A DNA stretch of 37,095 bases from a virus (lineage: Duplodnaviria > Caudoviricetes): IMG/VR virus record IMGVR_UViG_3300049139_000387, positions 1 to 37,095 of that record, one strand, 5' to 3'. Position 1 is the stretch's first letter. Each line of letters opens with the position of its first letter. Below the pieces are notes generated by a model. It had not been told where the DNA came from, ran no database searches, and saw only the letters and a program-made list of their open reading frames with translations. The position numbers and the translations under genes were made by a program. Positions 7 through 30,371 of this stretch are shown one piece after another.

Positions 7-135
7 ATGTCCTTGATCGTCTCCAGCGAGAAGCTGACCAAGAAGTACGGCGGGCGCACCGTCGTGGCGGACCTGGACCTGCGCGTCCCCGAGGGCTGCG
101 TGTACGGATTCCTGGGGCCCAACGGGCGCCCTTAA
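7..135 (+). pseudogene. 5' fragment of host ABC transporter ATP-binding gene, interrupted at Walker A
   Basis: ATG at 7 reads MSLIVSSEKLTKKYGGRTVVADLDLRVPEGCVYGFLGPNG, a textbook ABC ATPase N-terminus, then R-P-stop (TAA 133-135) instead of (A/S)GK(S/T). Confidence 0.9.
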
Positions 136-2103: not shown

Positions 2104-3221
2104 CAGCTCTCCGTGTCGGGCGGGTGGTGGTCGGCCAGGTCGAGCGTGAGTGTGGCGCGGGCGACCTGTTCGCGGGTGGTGTCGTGGACGGTGCGCTCGG
2201 TGATGCGCACGGCGGGTCGGTCCTCGTCCAGCCACTCATCGCGCAGCACCAGGCGGGCGCGATCGCCGACGCCGTAGGAGGACAGGGGCGGGGCCGTGGC
2301 GGTGACGTCGATCTGCACGGCGATGGGCGACTCGGTCGAGGCGAGGCGTTCGGCGCGGGCGTGTTCGGCGAGGGTGGTGGCGCGGGTGACACCGGAATAG
2401 GTCTGCGCTTTCTCCCGCAGCAGCGCGTGTCCGGCCCCGAGTCCGGGGTCGGTATCGACGGCCAGCAGCGCATCGGGTGGGGCGGGGTCGTCGCCCATAG
2501 CCCACACGCGGGTGAACCGCTCGGCGGCATTGTCGGGCCAGTCGTAGGCGAGCACGTTCCCGCCGCTGGGCGTGGTCTCGAACAGCAGCGGTCCGGCGGC
2601 CTGGTGGCGCTCGGGATGCCACAGCTCCAGCACCCACACCGGACGGGTGCCGTCGTAGCGGGCCGAGATATCCCAGTCGAACCCGCGTTCGCGCTGGGCC
2701 ATGGCGTCGATGGCTTCGGCCACGGGACGGAAACTCTGAGCTTCCACGGTCAGCTCACGCAGCACACCGGAGACCTGGGAGCCGACCGCGATGGGCGGGC
2801 ATCCCGCTTCGCTGGCGGCGAAGGCCACTAGCTCCCGGGCGATGGCGAGTTGATCGACATCGCGCCAGGCCCAGGTGACGTGTCGGCTTCCGCTCATGCG
2901 GCGGATGAGACGGGTGGTCAGCCACGCCTTGGCGTGGGCGGCGGTCACGGTGATGGTGCGCTCACGCGGTGACCAGGGGCGGGCGATGATCACACCGTGC
3001 CACACGACCCGAGACTGGTCGTCCACGACGTACAGGCACGCGCGGTCAGGAGTGGTGGCGGTGCGGATGGCGTCGCTGAGGGTCGGGGTGATGGCGATGG
3101 TCCCGGTCAGCGAGCCGGGTTCGGTGAGCGATGCCGACCACTGGGTGCCAGTCAGCGGTAGACCATCCCCGTATAGGGGCCGTCCGGTGAGCACGTCGTG
3201 GACCCTGTAGGTGAAGCTCAT
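2103..3221 (-). CDS. Minor tail protein (siphovirus Gp37-like hub)
   Basis: 372 aa; W..L..PGS, VWHGVI, YGVGD motifs typical of actinophage minor tail proteins; position. Confidence 0.8.
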   Translation of the reverse strand: MSFTYRVHDVLTGRPLYGDGLPLTGTQWSASLTEPGSLTGTIAITPTLSDAIRTATTPDRACLYVVDDQSRVVWHGVIIARPWSPRERTITVTAAHAKAWLTTRLIRRMSGSRHVTWAWRDVDQLAIARELVAFAASEAGCPPIAVGSQVSGVLRELTVEAQSFRPVAEAIDAMAQRERGFDWDISARYDGTRPVWVLELWHPERHQAAGPLLFETTPSGGNVLAYDWPDNAAERFTRVWAMGDDPAPPDALLAVDTDPGLGAGHALLREKAQTYSGVTRATTLAEHARAERLASTESPIAVQIDVTATAPPLSSYGVGDRARLVLRDEWLDEDRPAVRITERTVHDTTREQVARATLTLDLADHHPPDTES

Positions 3222-4099
3222 GGCTGGTCGAGCCAGTAGGAGAACCCATCGAAGGCCAGCCAGTACGTGGTGTATTCGCTGCTGAGCCTGTTACTGGTGA
3301 GAGTCCCGTCGGGGGAGATCTGAGCGCGCATGACTCCGCCACTGACGGTGCTGCTGGTGCGCGCGGTCCCGTACGCGGTCCCGTAGACGGTGCTGGACGG
3401 ACGGGCGTGGACGGGTACCCGGGCGAGGGCGACTTCCCCGGATAGGTCGCCGTCCGGGATGAGGCCGCCACGGCTGGGCACCATCGCCCCGGACAGCCAC
3501 ACACGGCCACCGTCCACGCGATAGCTCGGAGAACGACCCTCGAAGGCGCTGTAGCCGGTGCGCAGGACGAGCGGTTGCCATCCGCCATCGGCGGGCAGGA
3601 GTCGCCGGGTGATGGTGGCGGGGGCGATGGTGGTGTCACCGGGGTTGACGCGCACGTCCGCCACGCGTGCCCAGGCTCCGGCTGGAGCAGCGGCCTCGAT
3701 GGACGCTGTTGTCGGTGCGGCCGGTGTGGTCGAGGCGGTGCCCTGCACGATCGTCCACGCAGGACCCTGCGCCTCGACCTGCCCGTACTGGGCATCGGCG
3801 ACGGTGACCACCAGAGCGTCGATGCGCGGTTGTGCGGCGGGTCCCGGCCAGGGCAGGACCTCGGGTTCGGCTGACCACACCAGGTACGAGCCTTGATCAA
3901 CCGCTGAGCGGCCTTCCAGGACCGCGCGGCCGGGGCCGATCTCCACGGCCAGCCCACCCTCCTGGGCGAAGGGCATGACCGGGAAATCGCTGAGGCCCAT
4001 GCTTCCCGTGCCGGGGCGGATTCCGGCGATGAGCTGGCGCAGGTCCTCGACCGTGGTCGGGTACCCGTCCGCGCCGATCGCGGTGACACTCAAAGCCAC
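3218..4099 (-). CDS. Minor tail / tail-tip protein
   Basis: V..GRAV, PRIDALVV..V.D, IVQGT pattern of actinophage minor tail proteins; GTG start with GAGGAG RBS. Confidence 0.75.
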   Translation of the reverse strand: MALSVTAIGADGYPTTVEDLRQLIAGIRPGTGSMGLSDFPVMPFAQEGGLAVEIGPGRAVLEGRSAVDQGSYLVWSAEPEVLPWPGPAAQPRIDALVVTVADAQYGQVEAQGPAWTIVQGTASTTPAAPTTASIEAAAPAGAWARVADVRVNPGDTTIAPATITRRLLPADGGWQPLVLRTGYSAFEGRSPSYRVDGGRVWLSGAMVPSRGGLIPDGDLSGEVALARVPVHARPSSTVYGTAYGTARTSSTVSGGVMRAQISPDGTLTSNRLSSEYTTYWLAFDGFSYWLDQP

Positions 4100-8999: not shown

Positions 9000-9262
9000 G
9001 TCTCACCGCCGTAGACCTGCTCCACGACATCCCTCAGCCACTCCACGGAGATATCCGAGCCGGCCAGGGTGAGAAGTTCATCGACCCGGTCACCGAAGAG
9101 GCAGCCGAGGGCTTTGATGACCTCTTCCTGTTGCAGGTAGTAGGGGAAGCCAAGCGGGAGCTTCGCGGGCATGACGAACCGTTCGCCGCGAACGGTGATG
9201 CCGGTTTCGGTGTCGGTGGCCGACAGGTCGCGGGCGATCTTGTCGGCGTCGATCCAAGGCAT
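8903..9262 (-). CDS. Tail assembly chaperone (gpG)
   Basis: Between major tail and tape measure; GE at slippery site followed by Ser/Thr/Arg-rich tail; GGAGG RBS. Confidence 0.85.
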   Translation of the reverse strand: MPWIDADKIARDLSATDTETGITVRGERFVMPAKLPLGFPYYLQQEEVIKALGCLFGDRVDELLTLAGSDISVEWLRDVVEQVYGGETGETSASSRGSSKTPRSTTQRKRTSSATTRKR

Positions 9263-18174: not shown

Positions 18175-19080
18175 TCACTTCGTGCGGACTCGGGTCGTGC
18201 GTCGTTCGGCGGCGGCGACGGCCTTGGCGCGTTCGTCCTCGGCGGTGCCGCAGGCGGTCATCTGGGCGCGGTAGTAGGCCACGACCGAGATGCGCTCGGA
18301 TTCGCAGCAGGCGAGCATCGCGTCGTTGACGGCGCCGTGCGGACAGGTCATGGCGGTGTTGCCGTGCCACTGGTGGGCGTCCATGAGAATCAGGTCCCCG
18401 TCCCCCAGATCGACGCCCACCTGATACTCGGGGAACACCAGGCGTCCCCCGCTGTAGCTCCCTCGGCGCACCACGGCCAGCGTCGAGAATCCCTCGGCGA
18501 GGTCCCCGGAGTCCAGGTGCGCCCCGGTCGGGTAGGAGTTGTTCACGGTCACGGTGGTGAACACGGTGCCTTGGACCACCCAGTCCGGCGCGGTGTCGGC
18601 CACCCGTGCGGCCTGTGCGGCGTACCGGTCGGGCACGTGCTCGGCGAACGCGGCGCTCATCGCTCGCAGGAGTGGGGAGAGCTGGCGGAAGTGGGGCAGA
18701 TGCTCACCCGTCCACGCGGTGAGTCGGCAGTAGCGCTGCTGCCCCGAGGGGTCCATGGCGCCGACCACCGCCGAGGAGATAGCGCGTGCGCGGGTGCGGG
18801 TCTGTCCGGCGATCTTGAGTCGCTTGGTGCCCGAAGCCGCGCCCCTGTTGTCGGTGCGCTGTGTGCGCAGGCTGTGCAACACGTCGTAGATGCCGGGGTC
18901 GGAGTCCAGGATCTCGCGCAGGTGTCCGGGCAGGTACACGCACAGAGGACGACCGTCCGGCATGAGCACCCGTGTCGCTCCGGTGAGCAGAACACCATAG
19001 GAGGCATCAGTCGGTAGGCGTCCCTCGTGCGCGGCGACGGTCTCGGGGTGTGCGCGGGTGCGTACCCGCATCTCGATCAC
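18175..19080 (-). CDS. TET/JBP-family 2-oxoglutarate/Fe(II) dioxygenase (DNA base hydroxylase)
   Basis: CRLTAW, FTTVTVN, HxD (AHLDSGD), GG.LVFPEY, distal His (HQWHGNT), RISVVAYYR; GTG start coupled (GTGA) to the kinase stop. Confidence 0.88.
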   Translation of the reverse strand: MIEMRVRTRAHPETVAAHEGRLPTDASYGVLLTGATRVLMPDGRPLCVYLPGHLREILDSDPGIYDVLHSLRTQRTDNRGAASGTKRLKIAGQTRTRARAISSAVVGAMDPSGQQRYCRLTAWTGEHLPHFRQLSPLLRAMSAAFAEHVPDRYAAQAARVADTAPDWVVQGTVFTTVTVNNSYPTGAHLDSGDLAEGFSTLAVVRRGSYSGGRLVFPEYQVGVDLGDGDLILMDAHQWHGNTAMTCPHGAVNDAMLACCESERISVVAYYRAQMTACGTAEDERAKAVAAAERRTTRVRTK

Positions 19081-19628
19081 CTCAGGGCCTCCAGTGCGGG
19101 GATGCGTTCGGCAAGGCGTGCGGCCACCTGGTCCGGTGGGTCCGTGCACGGATCGGTGAGCAGACGCCACCCGCGTGAGGGGGCGCGCTCCGCCAGGCGA
19201 GCGGTCTTGGTGCGGCGTCCCCGGACCCACGTCGCGTCCTGAGGGGAACCGCGGAGTCGGCGGCGCTCGTGTGCGACCGCTTCGGACGGTGCGCAGTGCA
19301 CCAGCGTGACGGTGAACCCCGCTTCGGTCGCGGCGTCGAGGAACCCCGCCGTGGCCAGCCGATCGCCCTCGCCGAGGACCACTGCGGAATCCGTGCCGGC
19401 GATCCATGAACGCGCGGCCGGTTCCACCGACAGCGCGAGCGCATCCGTGCCCGAGAACGCGGCGCGACGGCGACCGAGTTCGACCGCGACCACTTCACGC
19501 GAACGCACGAGGAGATCGTGTGCGAAGGGTCGGCGGCGGCTCAGCCGCGCGCACTGGTCGGTCAGCGCGCACATCAGCGTGGACTTGCCCGCTCCGGGCT
19601 CGCCGATCAGATAGACCAGCTCCTTCAC
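19077..19628 (-). CDS. P-loop nucleotide kinase (type associated with base-modification loci)
   Basis: YLIGEPGAGKST, FSGTDAL, EGDRLA, RR.LRGS.QD..W..GR.TK; coupled to ParB and TET genes. Confidence 0.8.
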   Translation of the reverse strand: MKELVYLIGEPGAGKSTLMCALTDQCARLSRRRPFAHDLLVRSREVVAVELGRRRAAFSGTDALALSVEPAARSWIAGTDSAVVLGEGDRLATAGFLDAATEAGFTVTLVHCAPSEAVAHERRRLRGSPQDATWVRGRRTKTARLAERAPSRGWRLLTDPCTDPPDQVAARLAERIPALEALR

Positions 19629-20338
19629 GCGGCGGCCTCCCGTTCGGGAAGGTGGCCACGGATCATCTTCGGGGTCACGGCGCGCAGAGCGCCCAGCACC
19701 AGATCACCCGAGGACACCTCGGTGCCCAGGCCGCGACGCAGCTCGGCGAGACGGGCCACGGCTTCGGTGTGTTCGTCCAGGTCCAGGACCACGACGAACT
19801 CACGTAGCCCCGACGCCGAAGCTTCCTCGTCTTGTTCGGCGTTGGCGCCCAGGCGCTCAGCGCGCGCGGCCGTCTCCTCGTCGGACTCGGCGTACTGGGG
19901 CTGGACTGTGGTCGGCGGAGAGGTGGGGACCTCGCCCAGGCGTGCGGCGAGGTCTTCCAGGTCGTCAACGCTGAACGCCGTTCCGGTGAGGGCTTCGGCG
20001 TCGGCGCCCACCTGTTCCAGGAGGGCGAGCAGAGCCGACTCGTCGTAGGTCGCCAGATCGGTGGAACGGTTGTCGGCGAGCAGGATCTTGCGCGCCTGGT
20101 CGTCGTTCACATCGACCCACAGCACGGGGATCTCTGCGGCGCCGCGAGCCTTGAGCGCCATCCAGCGGTGATTGCCCGCGAGGATGCGTCCGGTGCTCCG
20201 CTGCGCGACGACGGCGCCGTAGAACCCGTGCGCGTCGATGGACTCGCCGATGGCGTCGACGTCCCCGCGACGCGGGTTGTCGGGGTGCGGGATGAGCTGG
20301 TCGATCGGCACCTGTTCGTAGTGCTGGTTGCTGATCAC
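19625..20338 (-). CDS. ParB/Srx N-terminal domain protein
   Basis: HPDNPRRGD, ESI..HGF, ILAGNHRW.A, LADNR; GTG start coupled to the upstream stop. Confidence 0.88.
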   Translation of the reverse strand: MISNQHYEQVPIDQLIPHPDNPRRGDVDAIGESIDAHGFYGAVVAQRSTGRILAGNHRWMALKARGAAEIPVLWVDVNDDQARKILLADNRSTDLATYDESALLALLEQVGADAEALTGTAFSVDDLEDLAARLGEVPTSPPTTVQPQYAESDEETAARAERLGANAEQDEEASASGLREFVVVLDLDEHTEAVARLAELRRGLGTEVSSGDLVLGALRAVTPKMIRGHLPEREAAA

Positions 20339-20652
20339 GAGGCGCCTCTCAGCCAGGCGCGGCACATGTTCTGGTGGCGGGAGGTCGTGACCGAGTAGCG
20401 CTCGTCAGGTATGACTACTTCGCCGTCGGCGCGCACCCACGCGATCGGGGTGCGGTAGGAGAGCACGGTGTAGACGACTCCGGGGTCCTCGTCGTCGGCG
20501 CGATAGCGCCGGTACCACTCATGGGGCAGGCACTCGCCTGTACTCCAGAGCGCTCCCGCGATGGCGCTCATGGCTCCGTAAGAAGTGAAGGGTTCGCGTC
20601 GAGCCAGGAATCCATCAGGACCACCAGCGTCCCGAATCGCGATCGACGGCAT
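20335..20652 (-). CDS. Phage hypothetical protein
   Basis: GGAGG RBS; SYxTPIAW...YSVTTSRHQ motif recalled from phage proteins of unknown function; first gene of the operon. Confidence 0.75.
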   Translation of the reverse strand: MPSIAIRDAGGPDGFLARREPFTSYGAMSAIAGALWSTGECLPHEWYRRYRADDEDPGVVYTVLSYRTPIAWVRADGEVVIPDERYSVTTSRHQNMCRAWLRGAS

Positions 20653-25397: not shown

Positions 25398-25574
25398 CTA
25401 CTCGGCCTGGCGAACCTCAGCGATGAGCGCCACCCACTGCCCCAAGGGGACAGTGATGTGTCCCGAGTCCCGATGGGCGGTGTCGCGCACGTCGGCGCCT
25501 GACGCGTGCTCCCGCACTTCCACGCACTCGTTGTTCCCACTGCTGTACGAGGACTTGTGCCACTCGGCGGTCAT
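25398..25574 (-). CDS. DUF397 protein (58 aa, absent from the ORF track)
   Basis: MTAEWHKSSYSSGNNECVEV...VRDT...G.I.V...QW; ATGA-coupled to the XRE gene. Confidence 0.93.
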   Translation of the reverse strand: MTAEWHKSSYSSGNNECVEVREHASGADVRDTAHRDSGHITVPLGQWVALIAEVRQAE

Positions 25575-26389
25575 GCCAGGTCACCTCTCACTTGCTTCAC
25601 CAGGTCCAGAGACGCTGCGGGGGTGAGCGCCCAAGACATCTGCTCCCCGAAGATAGCGCCCAAGCGTCTGACCTCATCACGCTGGTCGATGACCACGCCC
25701 CCAGAAGCGTGTTCTGCATAGGCCAGGGGTAGCCGGTCCTCGAAGGAGATCAGCCTGAACGGGCCGGTTGCTACCCCTGCCCGATTTTCCGTTCCAGAGG
25801 GGACGATCAGCAAGCGGAGAGTCCCGTCAGCTTGAAGTTTTAGCAGGTGATCGAGCTGCTTCGCCTGAGTCTGTGGTGATCCAATCGTGTGCCGGATCAC
25901 GTACTCCGTGAGCACCACGAGCATTCTCGGGCGGTTCTGAGAGAGCAGCTTCGGCAACATGGACGTCCTGACCTTCATCAAGCGTTCGATGTTGGCCCGG
26001 CTGTCACCAGGGCGACAGTCGGTCAGAACAGCGCGCGCGTAGTCGGGCGTCTGGAATCGCCCTGGGATGAGCGCCGAGTGGAACGTCTCGATGCTGATCG
26101 CGTACTTCTCGGCCTCGGTGATCTCGCGGTACCACTCCGGGTTGCCGTCGAGCCGCCGCGCGGTCTCCCAAGCGCGTAGAACACTTCCGTGCGCGTCCAG
26201 CTCTCTGTCCAGGCTCTCTACGTCTCTACGCCTTGGTTTTCGGTGGCCCGTCTCATGGCCGCCAAGCGTGCTTCTCGCGATCCCACACTGCTTGGCCAGA
26301 TCATCCTGTGACAACCCAGACATTCTGCGTAAATGGCTCAACGTGGCACCAAATTCGCGCCAAGCATGGTGAGGGGGTTCAGTCGCCAT
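25571..26389 (-). CDS. XRE-family HTH + DUF5753 regulator (WhiJ/Scr1-like)
   Basis: FG..L..LR...GLSQ..LA, E.G.R.P, IPG.FQTP.YARA, QL.HL. Confidence 0.92.
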   Translation of the reverse strand: MATEPPHHAWREFGATLSHLRRMSGLSQDDLAKQCGIARSTLGGHETGHRKPRRRDVESLDRELDAHGSVLRAWETARRLDGNPEWYREITEAEKYAISIETFHSALIPGRFQTPDYARAVLTDCRPGDSRANIERLMKVRTSMLPKLLSQNRPRMLVVLTEYVIRHTIGSPQTQAKQLDHLLKLQADGTLRLLIVPSGTENRAGVATGPFRLISFEDRLPLAYAEHASGGVVIDQRDEVRRLGAIFGEQMSWALTPAASLDLVKQVRGDLA

Positions 26390-26574
26390 GCGAGCACTAT
26401 GCCATAGAGGTTGTCGCGCTAACTCCGCGCCGATGACGCAGAATGATGCGTCACTCTCGCGTCAGCCCTGATTGCGCGGCATCTCTGGCTTCTTTCATGC
26501 TCCAAGTTCATGCTTCCTTTTAGCGACCAAGATCTGCTGAGCGCTTCCGAACGTGCGCGGACCAGAGGTAAGAG

Positions 26575-27126
26575 GTGATCTGTGTGGGCAAGGTGATCGA
26601 GTTGCATGGAGGCAGCACGCCATCCGACCTGAGGTTGCCGCCCCCACGTCGTGTCACTGACGGGCACCTGCGGGCACCCATCGTCAACGGCCGACCCCTT
26701 CCCATGGGAGATGCGATTGCGCTCTACGGGCTGAAAGAGATGTCCGCTGTTGCTCGACGGTGGGTCCGTGTTCACGCCGGACGCCGCAGCGACGAGAACG
26801 ACACCCTTGCGCTCCTCACCGCTGAGCTGTTCGCGAACGCCGTTCGCCACAGCCGTAGCGGACAGCCCGGTGGTGAGGTCGTCGTTGCGGTCAGCAAGAC
26901 CGGCATGACCACGCAGGTCAAGGTTGTGGACAACGGCCCCCGGGAACCCGGGGCAGGCCCGCGCCTCAGGACCGTCGATGTCGCGGCTGGGGACGGCGAA
27001 CTCGGTGGGTTCGGTCTTCGCCTGGTCAACGACATGGCCACCAGGTGGGGCGTCCTCCACGAACAGGTCCGGGGAGAGTGCCGCACCACCGTGTGGTTCG
27101 ACATCGACCGCGACGCTCAGGCGTGA
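26575..27126 (+). CDS. HATPase_c ATP-binding protein (AbaA/RsbW-like anti-sigma)
   Basis: ARRWV, LL.AELF.NAVRHS.SG, V.D.G, GG.GL.LV...A.RWG, VWF; start may be GTG 26584. Confidence 0.9.
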   Translation: MICVGKVIELHGGSTPSDLRLPPPRRVTDGHLRAPIVNGRPLPMGDAIALYGLKEMSAVARRWVRVHAGRRSDENDTLALLTAELFANAVRHSRSGQPGGEVVVAVSKTGMTTQVKVVDNGPREPGAGPRLRTVDVAAGDGELGGFGLRLVNDMATRWGVLHEQVRGECRTTVWFDIDRDAQA

Positions 27127-27132
27127 TCCGAG

Positions 27133-27348
27133 ATGGCCTGGGACCCCAGCGAAGACGAGCCGTTCAGGCAGAACGCCGCGCTGCTCCAGAAGCACGTTGG
27201 AAGCACGTGGCTTGTGTTCTGGGGGACAGGGTCACGCCAGTACTGGGCGTTCAGGCGCGGAGGCTCCTCGCTCATTCTCTCCCACCCCGATCCGCAGCAG
27301 CTCTACGCCAACATCCAGCGCCACGCGCCCCATAGACCAGCACGCTGA
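27133..27348 (+). CDS. Small Trp-rich hypothetical protein
   Basis: W.V.WG..SR.YWAF...L....DP..L; directly after the HATPase. Confidence 0.7.
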   Translation: MAWDPSEDEPFRQNAALLQKHVGSTWLVFWGTGSRQYWAFRRGGSSLILSHPDPQQLYANIQRHAPHRPAR

Positions 27349-27394
27349 CGCGGCAGGCCCGCTCCCGCCACCACGAATCGACCTGGAAAGACCG

Positions 27395-27670
27395 ATGTCT
27401 CCCCTCACTATCAGCGCCGCCATCGTTGCCCTCTACCTCGGCACCGGCACCCTGTACTCCTGGATGGTCGCCCGAGCCATCGTCCTAGCCATCCCGGACA
27501 AGCTATGCAGCGACAAGTGCCGCTCGTTGCACACACACGCGTTCTCCCAAGCCTCCGACATGCTGACGGCGCCCAGCGCTTTGCTGGTACACGCCATCGT
27601 TGGGGCCGTTTGGCCGATGGCGATCCGCAAGCAGTGCTTCTGCTTCTTTCGTGCCACTCTCCAGGGCTGA
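27395..27670 (+). CDS. Small two-helix membrane protein
   Basis: Two hydrophobic segments around C...C..LH, ending AVWP; GGAAAG RBS. Confidence 0.65.
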   Translation: MSPLTISAAIVALYLGTGTLYSWMVARAIVLAIPDKLCSDKCRSLHTHAFSQASDMLTAPSALLVHAIVGAVWPMAIRKQCFCFFRATLQG

Positions 27671-27821
27671 TTCCTCGACCCCTAATCCGGCGCGGCGGTG
27701 CGGTGAACCCGCCCCAACCCTGCGGTGAGAGCACCGTCCAACTTGCTCGTCCCGCACCGCCGCGCCTCCCACATCCACGTTGCCCCCTCGACCCACCTCT
27801 GACCTGAGCTAAGGAGCGCAC

Positions 27822-28079
27822 GTGCCGAGCACGCGGGAACCACATCCGGATGAAGTCATGACCGCCACCGAGGCAAGCCGCCTGCTGGGGGTCGATCAAA
27901 CGACCCTGAAGCGGTGGGTGAAAGCGGGGAGGATCACCCATTTCCGAACCGCAGGCGGTCACATGAGGTTCCGGAGGCGTGACGTGGACGCGTTTATCGC
28001 AGCCCGTCTGACCCTAGGCCAACCAGCAAAAGCACCCGGAACTGCGGTCTCGCGTCCCACGGCCGAGAGAAAGAAGTGA
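27822..28079 (+). CDS. BldC-like / excisionase-family (MerR-type) HTH protein
   Basis: MT..EA..LLGVD..TL.RW.KAG.I...RTAGGH.RF...DV; AAGGAG RBS. Confidence 0.85.
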   Translation: MPSTREPHPDEVMTATEASRLLGVDQTTLKRWVKAGRITHFRTAGGHMRFRRRDVDAFIAARLTLGQPAKAPGTAVSRPTAERKK

Positions 28080-28191: not shown

Positions 28192-29313
28192 ATGCACCAG
28201 CTCATTGTCGCCCCCTTCCTGGATGACCACCTCGTCCTCCGACCCGGCCACCAGAGCGGGTTCAAGATCCCCCGTACTCACTACCTGGAACTGGCCGAAT
28301 CCCCCAACAGCCGGGTCTGCCCTGACTGGCTCGCCTCCGCAGCTCAGCGCGCCTTCGGCCTAGACCTCGCCGGACACCCCCTGCGCCCGGACGTCCTCGT
28401 CCGTGAGCGGTCTCCCTACGGCTACGTCCGTGCGTCCTACGAACTCAACCTCGGCTGCAACTACGACTGCGAACACTGCTATCTCGGCGACCGGCCCTTC
28501 GATGGGCTCGACTGGGCCGGTCGTGAGCGGCTGCTGCACATCATGCGCGACGCCGGCGTGGTGTGGATTCAGCTCACCGGCGGAGAACCCCTGATCGACA
28601 AGTACTTCCCCGACGTCTACACGCTCGCCAATCAGCTCGGCATGATGGTCAGCATCAGCTCCAACGGCTCCCGGCTCGCCACCCCACGAGTTCTGGACCT
28701 GCTGACCGCGCAGCGCCCCTACCGTGTGACCCTCTCGGTCTACGGCGCCACGGAAGAGTCCTACGACGGCATGACCCGCCGACGAGGCTCCTTCCGCAAG
28801 TTCGTCAAGGGCCTGGACGCGGCCGTCGAAGCGGAGCTGTCGTTGCAGCTCAACATCGTGGTCTCGAACCACAATGCCCACGAGGTCGACGCCATGGTGG
28901 AGATGGCTGAGTCGCGAGGCGTGTCTCACCACGTGTTCGTCAACATGGTGCCGACCATCCATGGCGACGGAGGCGTGCTGGTCACCCAGTCCCAGGAACA
29001 CCTGCGCAAGCGCAAGCCCTTCGGCGGGTGCAACGCCGGTCACACGTTCTTCCACTCCGACCCGCACGGCCGCGCCACCATCTGCAAGGTCGGCCGGGAC
29101 GACGCCATCAACCTGATGGACGAAGGCATCGAAGGGCTGGCACGCCTCGGCGAGATCGCCGACCGGCTGATGCTCCGAACCGGCGGATGTTCCGGGTGCG
29201 CGCTGTCGGGGTCCTGCACTGTGTGCCGACCGCTGGCCAAGCAGTACCAGCAGGCCCAGGCGCCCCTCAAGTCCTACTGCCAGCACGGACAGCGAGAGGA
29301 GGTGAACACATGA
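28192..29313 (+). CDS. Radical SAM / SPASM-domain peptide maturase
   Basis: CNYDCEHC (Cx3Cx2C), TGGEP, SSNG, SVYG; C-terminal CNAG..ICK..CSGC.....C..C..YC. Confidence 0.92.
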   Translation: MHQLIVAPFLDDHLVLRPGHQSGFKIPRTHYLELAESPNSRVCPDWLASAAQRAFGLDLAGHPLRPDVLVRERSPYGYVRASYELNLGCNYDCEHCYLGDRPFDGLDWAGRERLLHIMRDAGVVWIQLTGGEPLIDKYFPDVYTLANQLGMMVSISSNGSRLATPRVLDLLTAQRPYRVTLSVYGATEESYDGMTRRRGSFRKFVKGLDAAVEAELSLQLNIVVSNHNAHEVDAMVEMAESRGVSHHVFVNMVPTIHGDGGVLVTQSQEHLRKRKPFGGCNAGHTFFHSDPHGRATICKVGRDDAINLMDEGIEGLARLGEIADRLMLRTGGCSGCALSGSCTVCRPLAKQYQQAQAPLKSYCQHGQREEVNT

Positions 29314-29432
29314 CCGCAGTGTTCGTCGAGATCAAGCCGACACAGGACACCGTGGAGTTCGTCGAAGACATGGACGACATCCTCGAATCCGAGAAGTGCA
29401 GCTGCGACGCAGGTGACGACAACCCTTACTAA
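29310..29432 (+). CDS. Putative RiPP precursor peptide (40 aa)
   Basis: MTAVFVEIKPTQDTVEFVEDMDDILESEKCSCDAGDDNPY; RBS GAGGAGGTGA; ATGA-coupled to the radical SAM stop. Confidence 0.85.
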   Translation: MTAVFVEIKPTQDTVEFVEDMDDILESEKCSCDAGDDNPY

Positions 29433-29453
29433 CCTGAGTCCCCCTCAGGCGCG

Positions 29454-29484
29454 CGGGCTCCGGTGGTTCAGCCACCGGAGCCCG
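29454..29484 (+). terminator. Perfect 13-bp stem-loop after precursor gene
   Basis: CGGGCTCCGGTGG-ttcag-CCACCGGAGCCCG. Confidence 0.7.
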
Positions 29485-29507
29485 TTGCGTGTGAGTACGA
29501 TGCGCCC

Positions 29508-30371
29508 ATGCCCGACTCTCGTGACGCCAGCCGTCTCGTGTTGCCCTTCCCCTACGTGCCCACCCTCGGCCCCGTGCACCCCGACGCCCTCACCGCACAT
29601 CTGTGGGACGAGGTCATGAGGGCCAACGGCACCGGCGCGTTCCTGCCGCACGACAAAGACGCACGCTGGGGCGGAACCAAAACAGAATCAGTCCTGACGC
29701 AGGCCATCCGCGGGGATGAGGAAGCCATCACTATCCCGACCCTGATACGGCGTGGTCGAGGCGTGCTGAAGGTCCACCACTACGGGCGAGCACCCGACGT
29801 GGAAAAGGCACTGGACGAGGCCGGGAAGCTCGCGGCCGAACACGGCGCAGCAGCAGCACGAGTCCTGTGGTTCTCTCAGGAACCCGACACCCGGTGGCAC
29901 AGTTGCCGCATCCAGCTCAAGACCTTCACCGGAAACGAACCTCACGCTCACGGCAGAGTAGGCAGCCTAGACGCCGAAGCGCTGTCCGTGCAGGGCACCT
30001 TCGACGCCTTCGCCGACACACTCAAGGAAGACGGGTTCGCTTTCCTCGCGGAGCGGATGCGTACCACCGGTCTGGACGGCCCACTTCTGGTTGCCGTGGC
30101 CGAGGGGCGCGTCGTGGGTGCCATCGGTCCGATGGCTATCCGCACGGACTCCATCGGCCGCCGCCGTCTCCTACCGCAGTACTTCGGCGTCCTTCCCGAG
30201 GCACGCGGACACGGGCATGGGCGCGCACTGTGGCGGGCAGCGATGCGCTGGGGACAGGAAGCCGGAGCCGCCTACCAACTCCTCCAGACCGAGACCGATG
30301 GTGCGTCCGACCACCTATGCCGATCCGAAGGGCTGATCAGCCTCGGCTTCGTCTTCACCGTCACCCTGTAG
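29508..30371 (+). CDS. GNAT-family N-acetyltransferase with N-terminal extension
   Basis: LLVAV.EGRVVG, FGVLPEARGHGHGRAL (acetyl-CoA motif A), LQT; start uncertain. Confidence 0.85.
   Translation: MPDSRDASRLVLPFPYVPTLGPVHPDALTAHLWDEVMRANGTGAFLPHDKDARWGGTKTESVLTQAIRGDEEAITIPTLIRRGRGVLKVHHYGRAPDVEKALDEAGKLAAEHGAAAARVLWFSQEPDTRWHSCRIQLKTFTGNEPHAHGRVGSLDAEALSVQGTFDAFADTLKEDGFAFLAERMRTTGLDGPLLVAVAEGRVVGAIGPMAIRTDSIGRRRLLPQYFGVLPEARGHGHGRALWRAAMRWGQEAGAAYQLLQTETDGASDHLCRSEGLISLGFVFTVTL

Follow-up and report, generated by a model that had tools for sequence, protein, structure and literature searches.

What is made by a short cassette that couples a radical S-adenosylmethionine (SAM) enzyme to a peptide of 40 amino acids (aa), and why is it carried on a phage genome? 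The question is raised by the virus record IMGVR_UViG_3300049139_000387 (Duplodnaviria; Caudoviricetes), analysed over its whole length of 37,095 bases and referred to below as the window. The record is classed as a provirus with an estimated completeness of 49%. A sequence-only reading had proposed that positions 28,192 to 30,371 specify a peptide that is ribosomally synthesised and then modified post-translationally (RiPP), matured by a radical SAM/SPASM enzyme and possibly acetylated by a GNAT enzyme. Comparison with relatives supports the RiPP cassette as genuine and its precursor as conserved, and the family to which it belongs is real, widespread and apparently undescribed.

The features on which the sequence-only reading was built were all recovered (Table 1). 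The enzyme has the Cx3Cx2C motif at Cys89, Cys93 and Cys96 and seven further Cys residues towards its C-terminus (280, 298, 333, 336, 342, 345 and 363), with the Cx2Cx5Cx2C element at residues 333–345. The peptide is translationally coupled to the enzyme through an ATGA overlap and an AGGAGG-type ribosome binding site (RBS). It is acidic, with 12 Asp or Glu residues, eight in residues 1–26 and four in the last 14. The 13-bp hairpin that follows has a perfect stem and a 5-nt loop, and the next gene product has the GNAT motif in residues ~190–263, although it is better described as a tandem enzyme of two GNAT domains. Judged by homologues, this gene more likely starts at the ATG at 29508 than at the GTG at 29463.

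Conservation of the precursor beside related enzymes carries the assignment. A total of 198 loci were fetched and 20 left out (18 duplicates or near-duplicates and two of another family). In 172 of the 178 loci counted, the enzyme is followed by a peptide that shares the C-terminal motif; of the rest, four are truncated at the end of a contig, the form at L154 is extended, and L033 has none. A further sample, drawn partly from the same genomes, gave 43 of 43. Two core types were found, CxCxxxDDxP[Y/F/H/N] and xGCG[D/E/N]DNPY. The main subtype is CxCxxxDDxP followed by a terminal Tyr, Phe, His or Asn, and C30, C32, D36, D37 and P39 are invariant across 57 aligned precursors of the CxC type. Precursors with a single Cys (PGCGDDNPYN, RGCG[E/N]DNPY and variants) occur at 23 loci. 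At loci with a GNAT gene, Ser27, Ser31 and Asn38 are 96–100% conserved. At L033 (~9100–9250), the radical SAM and kinase genes are kept and the precursor is cut down to the start of the leader, an apparent loss.

No curated or published family was matched in the sources searched. NCBIfam gave no match for the precursor alone and none of meaning for the 57 relatives, and database entries for such precursors, where named, are all "hypothetical" or "uncharacterized". The strings DDNP, DDQP, GDDN, CSCNAG and CGDD are absent from the 3,421-row spreadsheet of sactipeptide and ranthipeptide precursors in the available material of PMC10288494, and DDNPY was found once in the searchable open-access text, in an unrelated EGFR paper. 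No description of the family was found in the open-access literature, NCBIfam, Pfam or PHROGs, a scope that mostly excludes subscription journals; there is a small chance that an existing mining paper already lists it.

A search with the enzyme gave 1,195 proteins at E ≤ 1e-30 among 7,996 candidates, the best 120 being 61–95% identical. An enzyme relative is encoded in 577 stretches of species-representative genomes, and the best 80 of these were fetched for locus analysis. Of those, 79 are labelled as Actinomycetota or actinomycete genera. The other, L048, is a cassette typical of actinomycetes whose bin carries the label Candidatus Melainabacteria; it is probably misbinned. Presence is patchy: the cassette was found in 57 of 301 sampled species of Streptomyces (the genus of G005, which is the genome of L042) and in 12 of 151 genomes of the family of G003, the centre genome being counted in each case. 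It was also found in at least 11 IMG/VR loci and eight records of a plasmid collection. In the isolated temperate Streptomyces phage Success, gp3-gp2-gp1 correspond to the radical SAM enzyme, the peptide and a kinase, with an XRE module and a tyrosine recombinase alongside; its peptide is of the single-Cys type. At least 17 of the 80 genome loci have an integrase, relaxase, RepSA, FtsK or similar marker within 8 kb.

Because of this patchy presence, the virus, plasmid and phage copies, the mobility markers and the location in variable XRE-regulated regions, the cassette is a mobile accessory unit of actinomycetes, and the prophage holds one copy of it. The earlier view of phage cargo lying opposite to the phage genes was right for the strand, the cassette being on the plus strand and the phage genes on the minus strand. 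As a description of the family it was corrected: the cassette is not primarily phage cargo, for bacterial genomes hold most copies, in variable regions under XRE regulation. Among named relatives of the enzyme, the best (75–80% identity) are from Nocardiopsis and Spinactinospora, and the host of the window therefore likely belongs to their family. No integrase was found in the window record or in two relatives, these records being 35–50% complete.

In the enzyme model (predicted local distance difference test, pLDDT, 86), the barrel is preceded by three strands and two helices, at residues 4–55. Its top structural matches, in the range of 14–18% identity, are SkfB (6EFN; Z 22.5, root-mean-square deviation 5.0, 297 residues aligned, model residues 4–350) and SuiB (5V1T; Z 22.0, deviation 4.6, 320 aligned, model residues 2–365). 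Among the top structural matches listed, only these two cover the N-terminus. Their alignments start at model residue 2–4 and span their RiPP recognition element (RRE) regions. Thus, the N-terminal domain, for which an RRE prediction had been called for, appears RRE-like as judged within the whole-enzyme model.

The seven auxiliary Cys are conserved in 118–119 of 119 homologues, and that domain has no eighth conserved Cys. Their spacing (280-x17-298; 333-x2-336-x5-342-x2-345-x17-363) is near-identical to the 3+4 scheme of CteB, in which the auxiliary Cys are 344, 362, 413 and 400, 403, 409, 432 (PMC10177961). The first auxiliary cluster of CteB has three Cys and an open iron, and for PapB and Tte1186 an open-iron cluster that binds the substrate thiol has been proposed (available text of PMC10177961). 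Six catalytic-site positions have been used by Precord et al. for prediction of chemistry (PMC10288494). Placed by motif and not by superposition, these are Y97, T129, S156, S182, K299 and V300 in the enzyme of the window, four of the six being the same as in StsB (Y113, T147, I174, S199, K338, L339); CteB has F, F, T, S, H and Q (PMC10288494). The Y, T, S182 and K residues are invariant in 119 of 119 homologues, and the profile leans towards the hairpin sactisynthases. In view of the RRE-like N-terminus, the CteB-like 3+4 Cys and the four residues shared with StsB, Cys thioether chemistry of either kind, sactipeptide or ranthipeptide, is quite probable. Two findings temper this: Y, T and S are common active-site residues among SPASM enzymes, and by sequence the solved structure that matches best is that of BlsE, which is not a RiPP enzyme. 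Pfam gave only Radical_SAM, with no match for SPASM or PqqD, and among the best 25 of 55 NCBIfam families no cut-off was reached.

The alternative that the terminal aromatic residue is the target of the enzyme, by decarboxylation of the MftC type or cyclophane formation, with the Cys residues left to bind metal or form a disulfide, is very unlikely. It would account for the Tyr, Phe or His at the C-terminus of most precursors and for a weak similarity (69 bits) to the mycofactocin maturase model. However, several intact loci have a terminal Asn, the PGCGDDNPYN subtype has extra residues after the Tyr position, there is no Val-Tyr, and the auxiliary cluster would have an open site. The aromatic crosslink, one of two options left by the sequence-only reading, is disfavoured as the last precursor residue can be Asn.

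In the preferred thioether scheme, the RRE-like domain would bind the acidic leader, and a Cys of the substrate would attach to the open iron in the auxiliary cluster that has three Cys. The enzyme would close two thioethers (−4 Da) as a hairpin, C32 to D37 (i+5) and C30 to P39 (i+9), and a single bridge (−2 Da) in the single-Cys subtypes. This is the i+9/i+5 spacing of BlaA, with C13–G22 and C15–G20 links, and of StsA, with C4–G13 and C6–G11 links (PMC10288494). Several points weigh against this register. The CX3D element (C32–D36), present in the CxC subtype including the window, fits PapB equally well. In the single-Cys subtypes D37 lies three residues from the Cys and P39 five, hence one register cannot explain all acceptors. 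We also know of no natural thioether to Pro.

It is less probable, though a serious rival, that ranthipeptide chemistry joins C32 to D36 and C30 to D37 or D36 at the Asp beta carbons, the rest of the scheme being unchanged. The invariance of D36 and D37 in the 57 CxC precursors speaks for such links, as does D37 being the sole residue besides Cys kept in every subtype, and PapB, with the same 3+4 Cys scheme, joins Cys to Asp C-beta in CX3D (PMC10177961). On the other hand, D36 is replaced by Ser, Glu or Asn in some variants, CX3D is absent from the 23 single-Cys precursors, and catalytic positions 5 and 6 are K-V, resembling StsB and not the H-Q of CteB.

The window GNAT (model pLDDT 93) best matches 3TT2, MAB_4324, MshD and other two-domain GNATs at 11–15% identity. 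As a partner of the enzyme it stands for this locus but is in the minority among relatives, in which the usual gene after the hairpin encodes a kinase of the APH fold whose Lys, HxDxxxxN and DW motifs are intact. By hhalign, GNAT and kinase are unrelated (probability 0.5%). Among 151 loci with enough flanking DNA, 89 have the kinase only, 17 have GNAT then kinase, 45 have GNAT only, and none has neither. An adjacent kinase accompanies 106 of 109 precursors ending in Tyr and none of the 42 ending in Phe, His or Asn, all of which are at GNAT-only loci. The pattern was seen in the genome-plus-virus set (67/70 versus 0/16) and separately in the metagenome set (33/34 versus 0/20). Read most simply, the terminal Tyr is the target of the kinase, the lineage of the window lost the kinase, and the Tyr then drifts. 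The closest genome relatives (76–78% identity; L199, L200, L062/L201 and L211) have GNAT, kinase and a Tyr end, and the window copy appears to have lost the kinase that they kept. At L005 and the viral L002 there is GNAT without kinase, and a Phe end.

The following count against a link between kinase and Tyr. A Fisher p of 1e-14 was set aside because the loci are related. Each trait changes ~4 times on the tree, and the association is not significant after tree correction; of three independent pairs, about two change the same way, none the opposite way, and one shows no difference. Three Tyr-ending loci have GNAT and no kinase, namely L001, which is identical to the window, and two from Glycomyces. 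At the Phe-ending L024 and L035 the family kinase lies 2.9 and 5.7 kb upstream, and at L075 an unrelated APH gene follows the GNAT.

Variants of this region were also seen. At L028, L038 and L050 an antisense open reading frame (ORF) of ~180–195 aa, GNAT-like by eye, lies between hairpin and kinase; the scanned fragment of it had no Pfam match. The kinase is similarly displaced at L212 and L166. In the viral contigs L109 (~3050–3960) and L110 (~3090–3960), a different, RRE-less radical SAM enzyme (~25% identity) has a Cys-Pro-rich C-terminal tail, C-x-P...EC[S/T]PG[T/Y]PGS[E/G]CTP[K/R]N, and next to it, downstream, comes a relative of the family kinase (match at 4001). This enzyme is possibly a precursor fused to its maturase.

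A host protease would be needed to remove the leader, with Ser27 as the candidate new N-terminus for acetylation. For a core that starts at Ser27, the calculated monoisotopic masses are 1502.53 (unmodified), 1498.50 (−4 H) and 1540.51 (with acetyl). The tandem GNAT would then acylate the peptide, and in relatives the kinase would phosphorylate the terminal Tyr. Lys29 was rejected as the acetyl acceptor, being only 49% conserved at GNAT loci; since Ser27 is conserved (96%), it would be the better acylation candidate once N-terminal. As no well-flanked locus is without both transferases, GNAT and kinase may serve one end, the finishing or masking of the peptide.

Masking of a self-toxic peptide, with kinase and GNAT as interchangeable self-protection in a toxin-plus-antidote unit whose effect on induction or lysis would be killing or arrest, is a rather improbable variant of this idea. 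APH and AAC-type folds are classic resistance folds, and weak matches to APH(3') and a tabtoxin-resistance acetyltransferase were obtained. None of the 151 loci lacks both genes though each is repeatedly lost, and the hairpin separates them from the precursor. Yet 17 loci keep both genes, the independent losses are too few to give "never neither" much weight, and the residue linked to the kinase varies once the kinase is absent, which tailoring explains equally well.

The window hairpin has a folding z of −5.8, matched in none of 200 shuffles, and stems of 9 bp or longer stand after the precursor at 67 of 88 loci compared with 21 of 440 control stretches. The window hairpin lacks a U-tract. 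Terminator prediction did not pick it up, and at the cassette neither a terminator nor a sigma-70 promoter was called. Likely roles are stabilisation of the precursor mRNA and attenuation of the downstream gene.

The tailored product would act inside the cell, most plausibly in conflict with phages or mobile elements. The lack of a protease or exporter in the window extends to the relatives: none is conserved among their neighbour families, 111 of 117 shared families having been scanned. ABC and peptidase families, found at no more than 11 loci in flanking chromosomal DNA, were rejected as dedicated partners. A role in anti-phage or mobile-element conflict is a tentative lead, suggested by the precedent that lanthiphages set for exporter-less intracellular RiPPs of actinomycetes. 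Plausible defence genes were recognised by PADLOC at ~7 of the 80 genome loci (L008, L014, L026, L043, L047, L057 and L072), from 294 of 377 unshared neighbours of 120–700 aa, with housekeeping-type matches set aside, in a single set without control. In this weak test the defence genes are few and far from a clear defence-island signal, a point against the lead.

An XRE regulator gene lies within 4.5 kb upstream at 53 of the 69 genome loci with enough upstream DNA, accompanied by HATPase, DUF397, NUDIX or DUF6879 partners. The modified peptide might, on this evidence, be a signal read by the neighbouring XRE in control of lysogeny, transfer or development. This is unlikely, as the XREs come from four separate families and the core is near-constant, suggesting a shared location or promoter type and not a dedicated receptor, and there is no shared exporter. 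The explanation as a whole, of thioether bridges, acylation and an intracellular product used in phage or mobile-element conflict, is evenly balanced between right and wrong, and a function outside the conflict, toxin and signal readings would be a surprise.

Table 1. Positions in the window of the cassette features and of genes upstream.
Feature	Positions	Strand	Basis
Maturase, radical SAM/SPASM, 373 aa; N-terminal domain ~1–72 (RRE-like), Cx3Cx2C, seven-Cys SPASM domain	28192..29313	+	
Precursor RBS, within the 3' end of the radical SAM gene; ATGA stop/start overlap 29310–29313	29297..29309	+	sequence
Precursor peptide, 40 aa; acidic leader ~1–26, core end C30-S-C32-D-A-G-D36-D37-N-P39-Y40	29310..29432	+	
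13-bp stem-loop 3' of precursor	29454..29484	+	
GNAT of two domains in tandem, 287 aa; C-terminal domain with the acetyl-CoA-binding motif	29508..30371	+	
BldC/excisionase-like HTH_17 protein, directly upstream of radical SAM gene; context, not conserved with the family	27822..28079	+	
HATPase_c_2 (anti-sigma-like) protein; same-fold relatives upstream in 28 loci	26575..27126	+	
Divergent XRE (HTH_31 + DUF5753) and DUF397 pair	25398..26389	-	

The cassette closes a longer plus-strand block that starts with the HATPase and BldC-like genes. Window positions 25398–28079, with XRE/DUF5753 and DUF397, HATPase_c_2, two small ORFs and the BldC-like helix-turn-helix protein, form a regulatory block, and modules of this sort, NUDIX or DUF6879 among their parts, are found ahead of the cassette across the phylum. 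The minus strand of the window encodes endolysin, tail, head, lysis, terminase, primase-polymerase, resolvase and replication genes. Just before the terminase, at 18175–20365 (minus strand), are genes for a TET/JBP-type 2OG-Fe(II) oxygenase, a P-loop nucleotide kinase 3 and a ParB-like protein, likely a phage DNA base-modification module. A 42-codon ORF at 7–135 (plus strand) starts like an ABC-transporter ATPase and ends inside the Walker A motif; it could mark the prophage boundary.

Elsewhere, at L045 (8068–8934, minus strand) and L084 (10383–11606, plus strand), PF14028 (lanthipeptide dehydratase C-terminal) and PF01135 (isoaspartate methyltransferase), both accessory domains of lanthiphages, are found just downstream of the cassettes. 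In the four-gene cassettes of Amycolatopsis (L025, L032 and L039), a gene for a TauD-type dioxygenase lies ~1.1 kb upstream of the radical SAM gene on the same strand; extra tailoring by this enzyme is possible.

A large and compact (2–3 kb) RiPP family has thus stayed unrecognised in common Streptomyces genomes, and it should be easily expressed. It offers a new maturase clade with predicted Asp and Pro acceptors and a candidate APH-fold peptide Tyr kinase. The natural series, CxC versus single Cys and Tyr with kinase versus Phe, His or Asn with GNAT, makes the steps directly testable. If the product is defensive, chemical anti-phage defence reaches beyond lanthipeptides, and the isolated phage Success is a ready test system. 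The boldest version, a second actinomycete-wide family of intracellular anti-phage RiPPs, found in about a fifth of Streptomyces species, radical-built in place of lanthionine synthesis and borne by temperate phages against competitors, with an unprecedented Cys-to-Pro thioether and a phosphotyrosine/N-acyl switch set by interchangeable APH-fold and tandem-GNAT enzymes, would be a long shot.

Among known systems, mycofactocin (MftA/MftC) likewise has a radical SAM/SPASM enzyme beside a short peptide that often ends in Tyr. The cassette precursors have Pro-Tyr, Pro-Phe, Pro-His or Pro-Asn and not Val-Tyr, the Tyr is replaceable, and the enzyme scores 69.1 bits against TIGR03962, below the cut-off of 265. 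Triceptide and other cyclophane RiPPs have a conserved aromatic-X-X motif inside the core, whereas here the sole aromatic residue stands at or near the end and may be replaced by Asn. SkfB and SuiB match the fold best over the whole length, N-terminal RRE region included. Their clusters have export and processing genes without counterpart in the cassette; the enzymes are 14–18% identical and the precursors unrelated.

The lanthiphages, anti-phage class I lanthipeptides, are described as restricted to actinomycetes, enriched on prophages and plasmids and acting intracellularly against phage (available text of bioRxiv 10.1101/2024.06.26.600839). Of these, 18% have ABC transporters, and 26.6% are near defence systems within 23 genes, compared with 4.7% for a random gene (same source). 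The cassette shares the actinomycete hosts, the patchy occurrence on prophages and plasmids, the usual lack of an exporter and, by prediction, a thioether-ringed product. It differs in that LanB and LanC are absent from the window and the shared neighbour families, radical chemistry taking their place.

PapA/PapB (freyrasin) and CteA/CteB have in common with the cassette the 3+4 auxiliary Cys at near-identical spacing and, in its CxC subtype, CX3D in the core (PMC10177961). In contrast to them, the cassette has only one or two Cys and is an actinomycete, mobile system, with 15% identity over the CteB structural match. StsA/StsB and BlaA/BlaB are likewise actinomycete radical SAM/SPASM systems with an RRE function and CxC donors at i+5/i+9 spacing to invariant residues (PMC10288494). 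Their acceptors are Gly, whereas those predicted here are Asp and Pro; the StsA core is CxCxCx4GxGxG, compared with CxCxxxDDxP; the enzyme scores 58.3 bits against the StsB model NF045574, for a cut-off of 625; and the cassette has a fused short RRE-like domain and kinase and tandem-GNAT partners. The cassette has the Cys-containing precursor beside a radical SAM enzyme with a SPASM/twitch domain and, as predicted from the model, the RRE (here fused) that mark the sactipeptide class, and it has the three-Cys plus four-Cys auxiliary ligands of ranthipeptides of the PapB/CteB type. Standing outside the StsA/StsB, mycofactocin, triceptide and lanthiphage families, the cassette is, as judged from its encoded proteins, one that works like a sactipeptide or ranthipeptide system.

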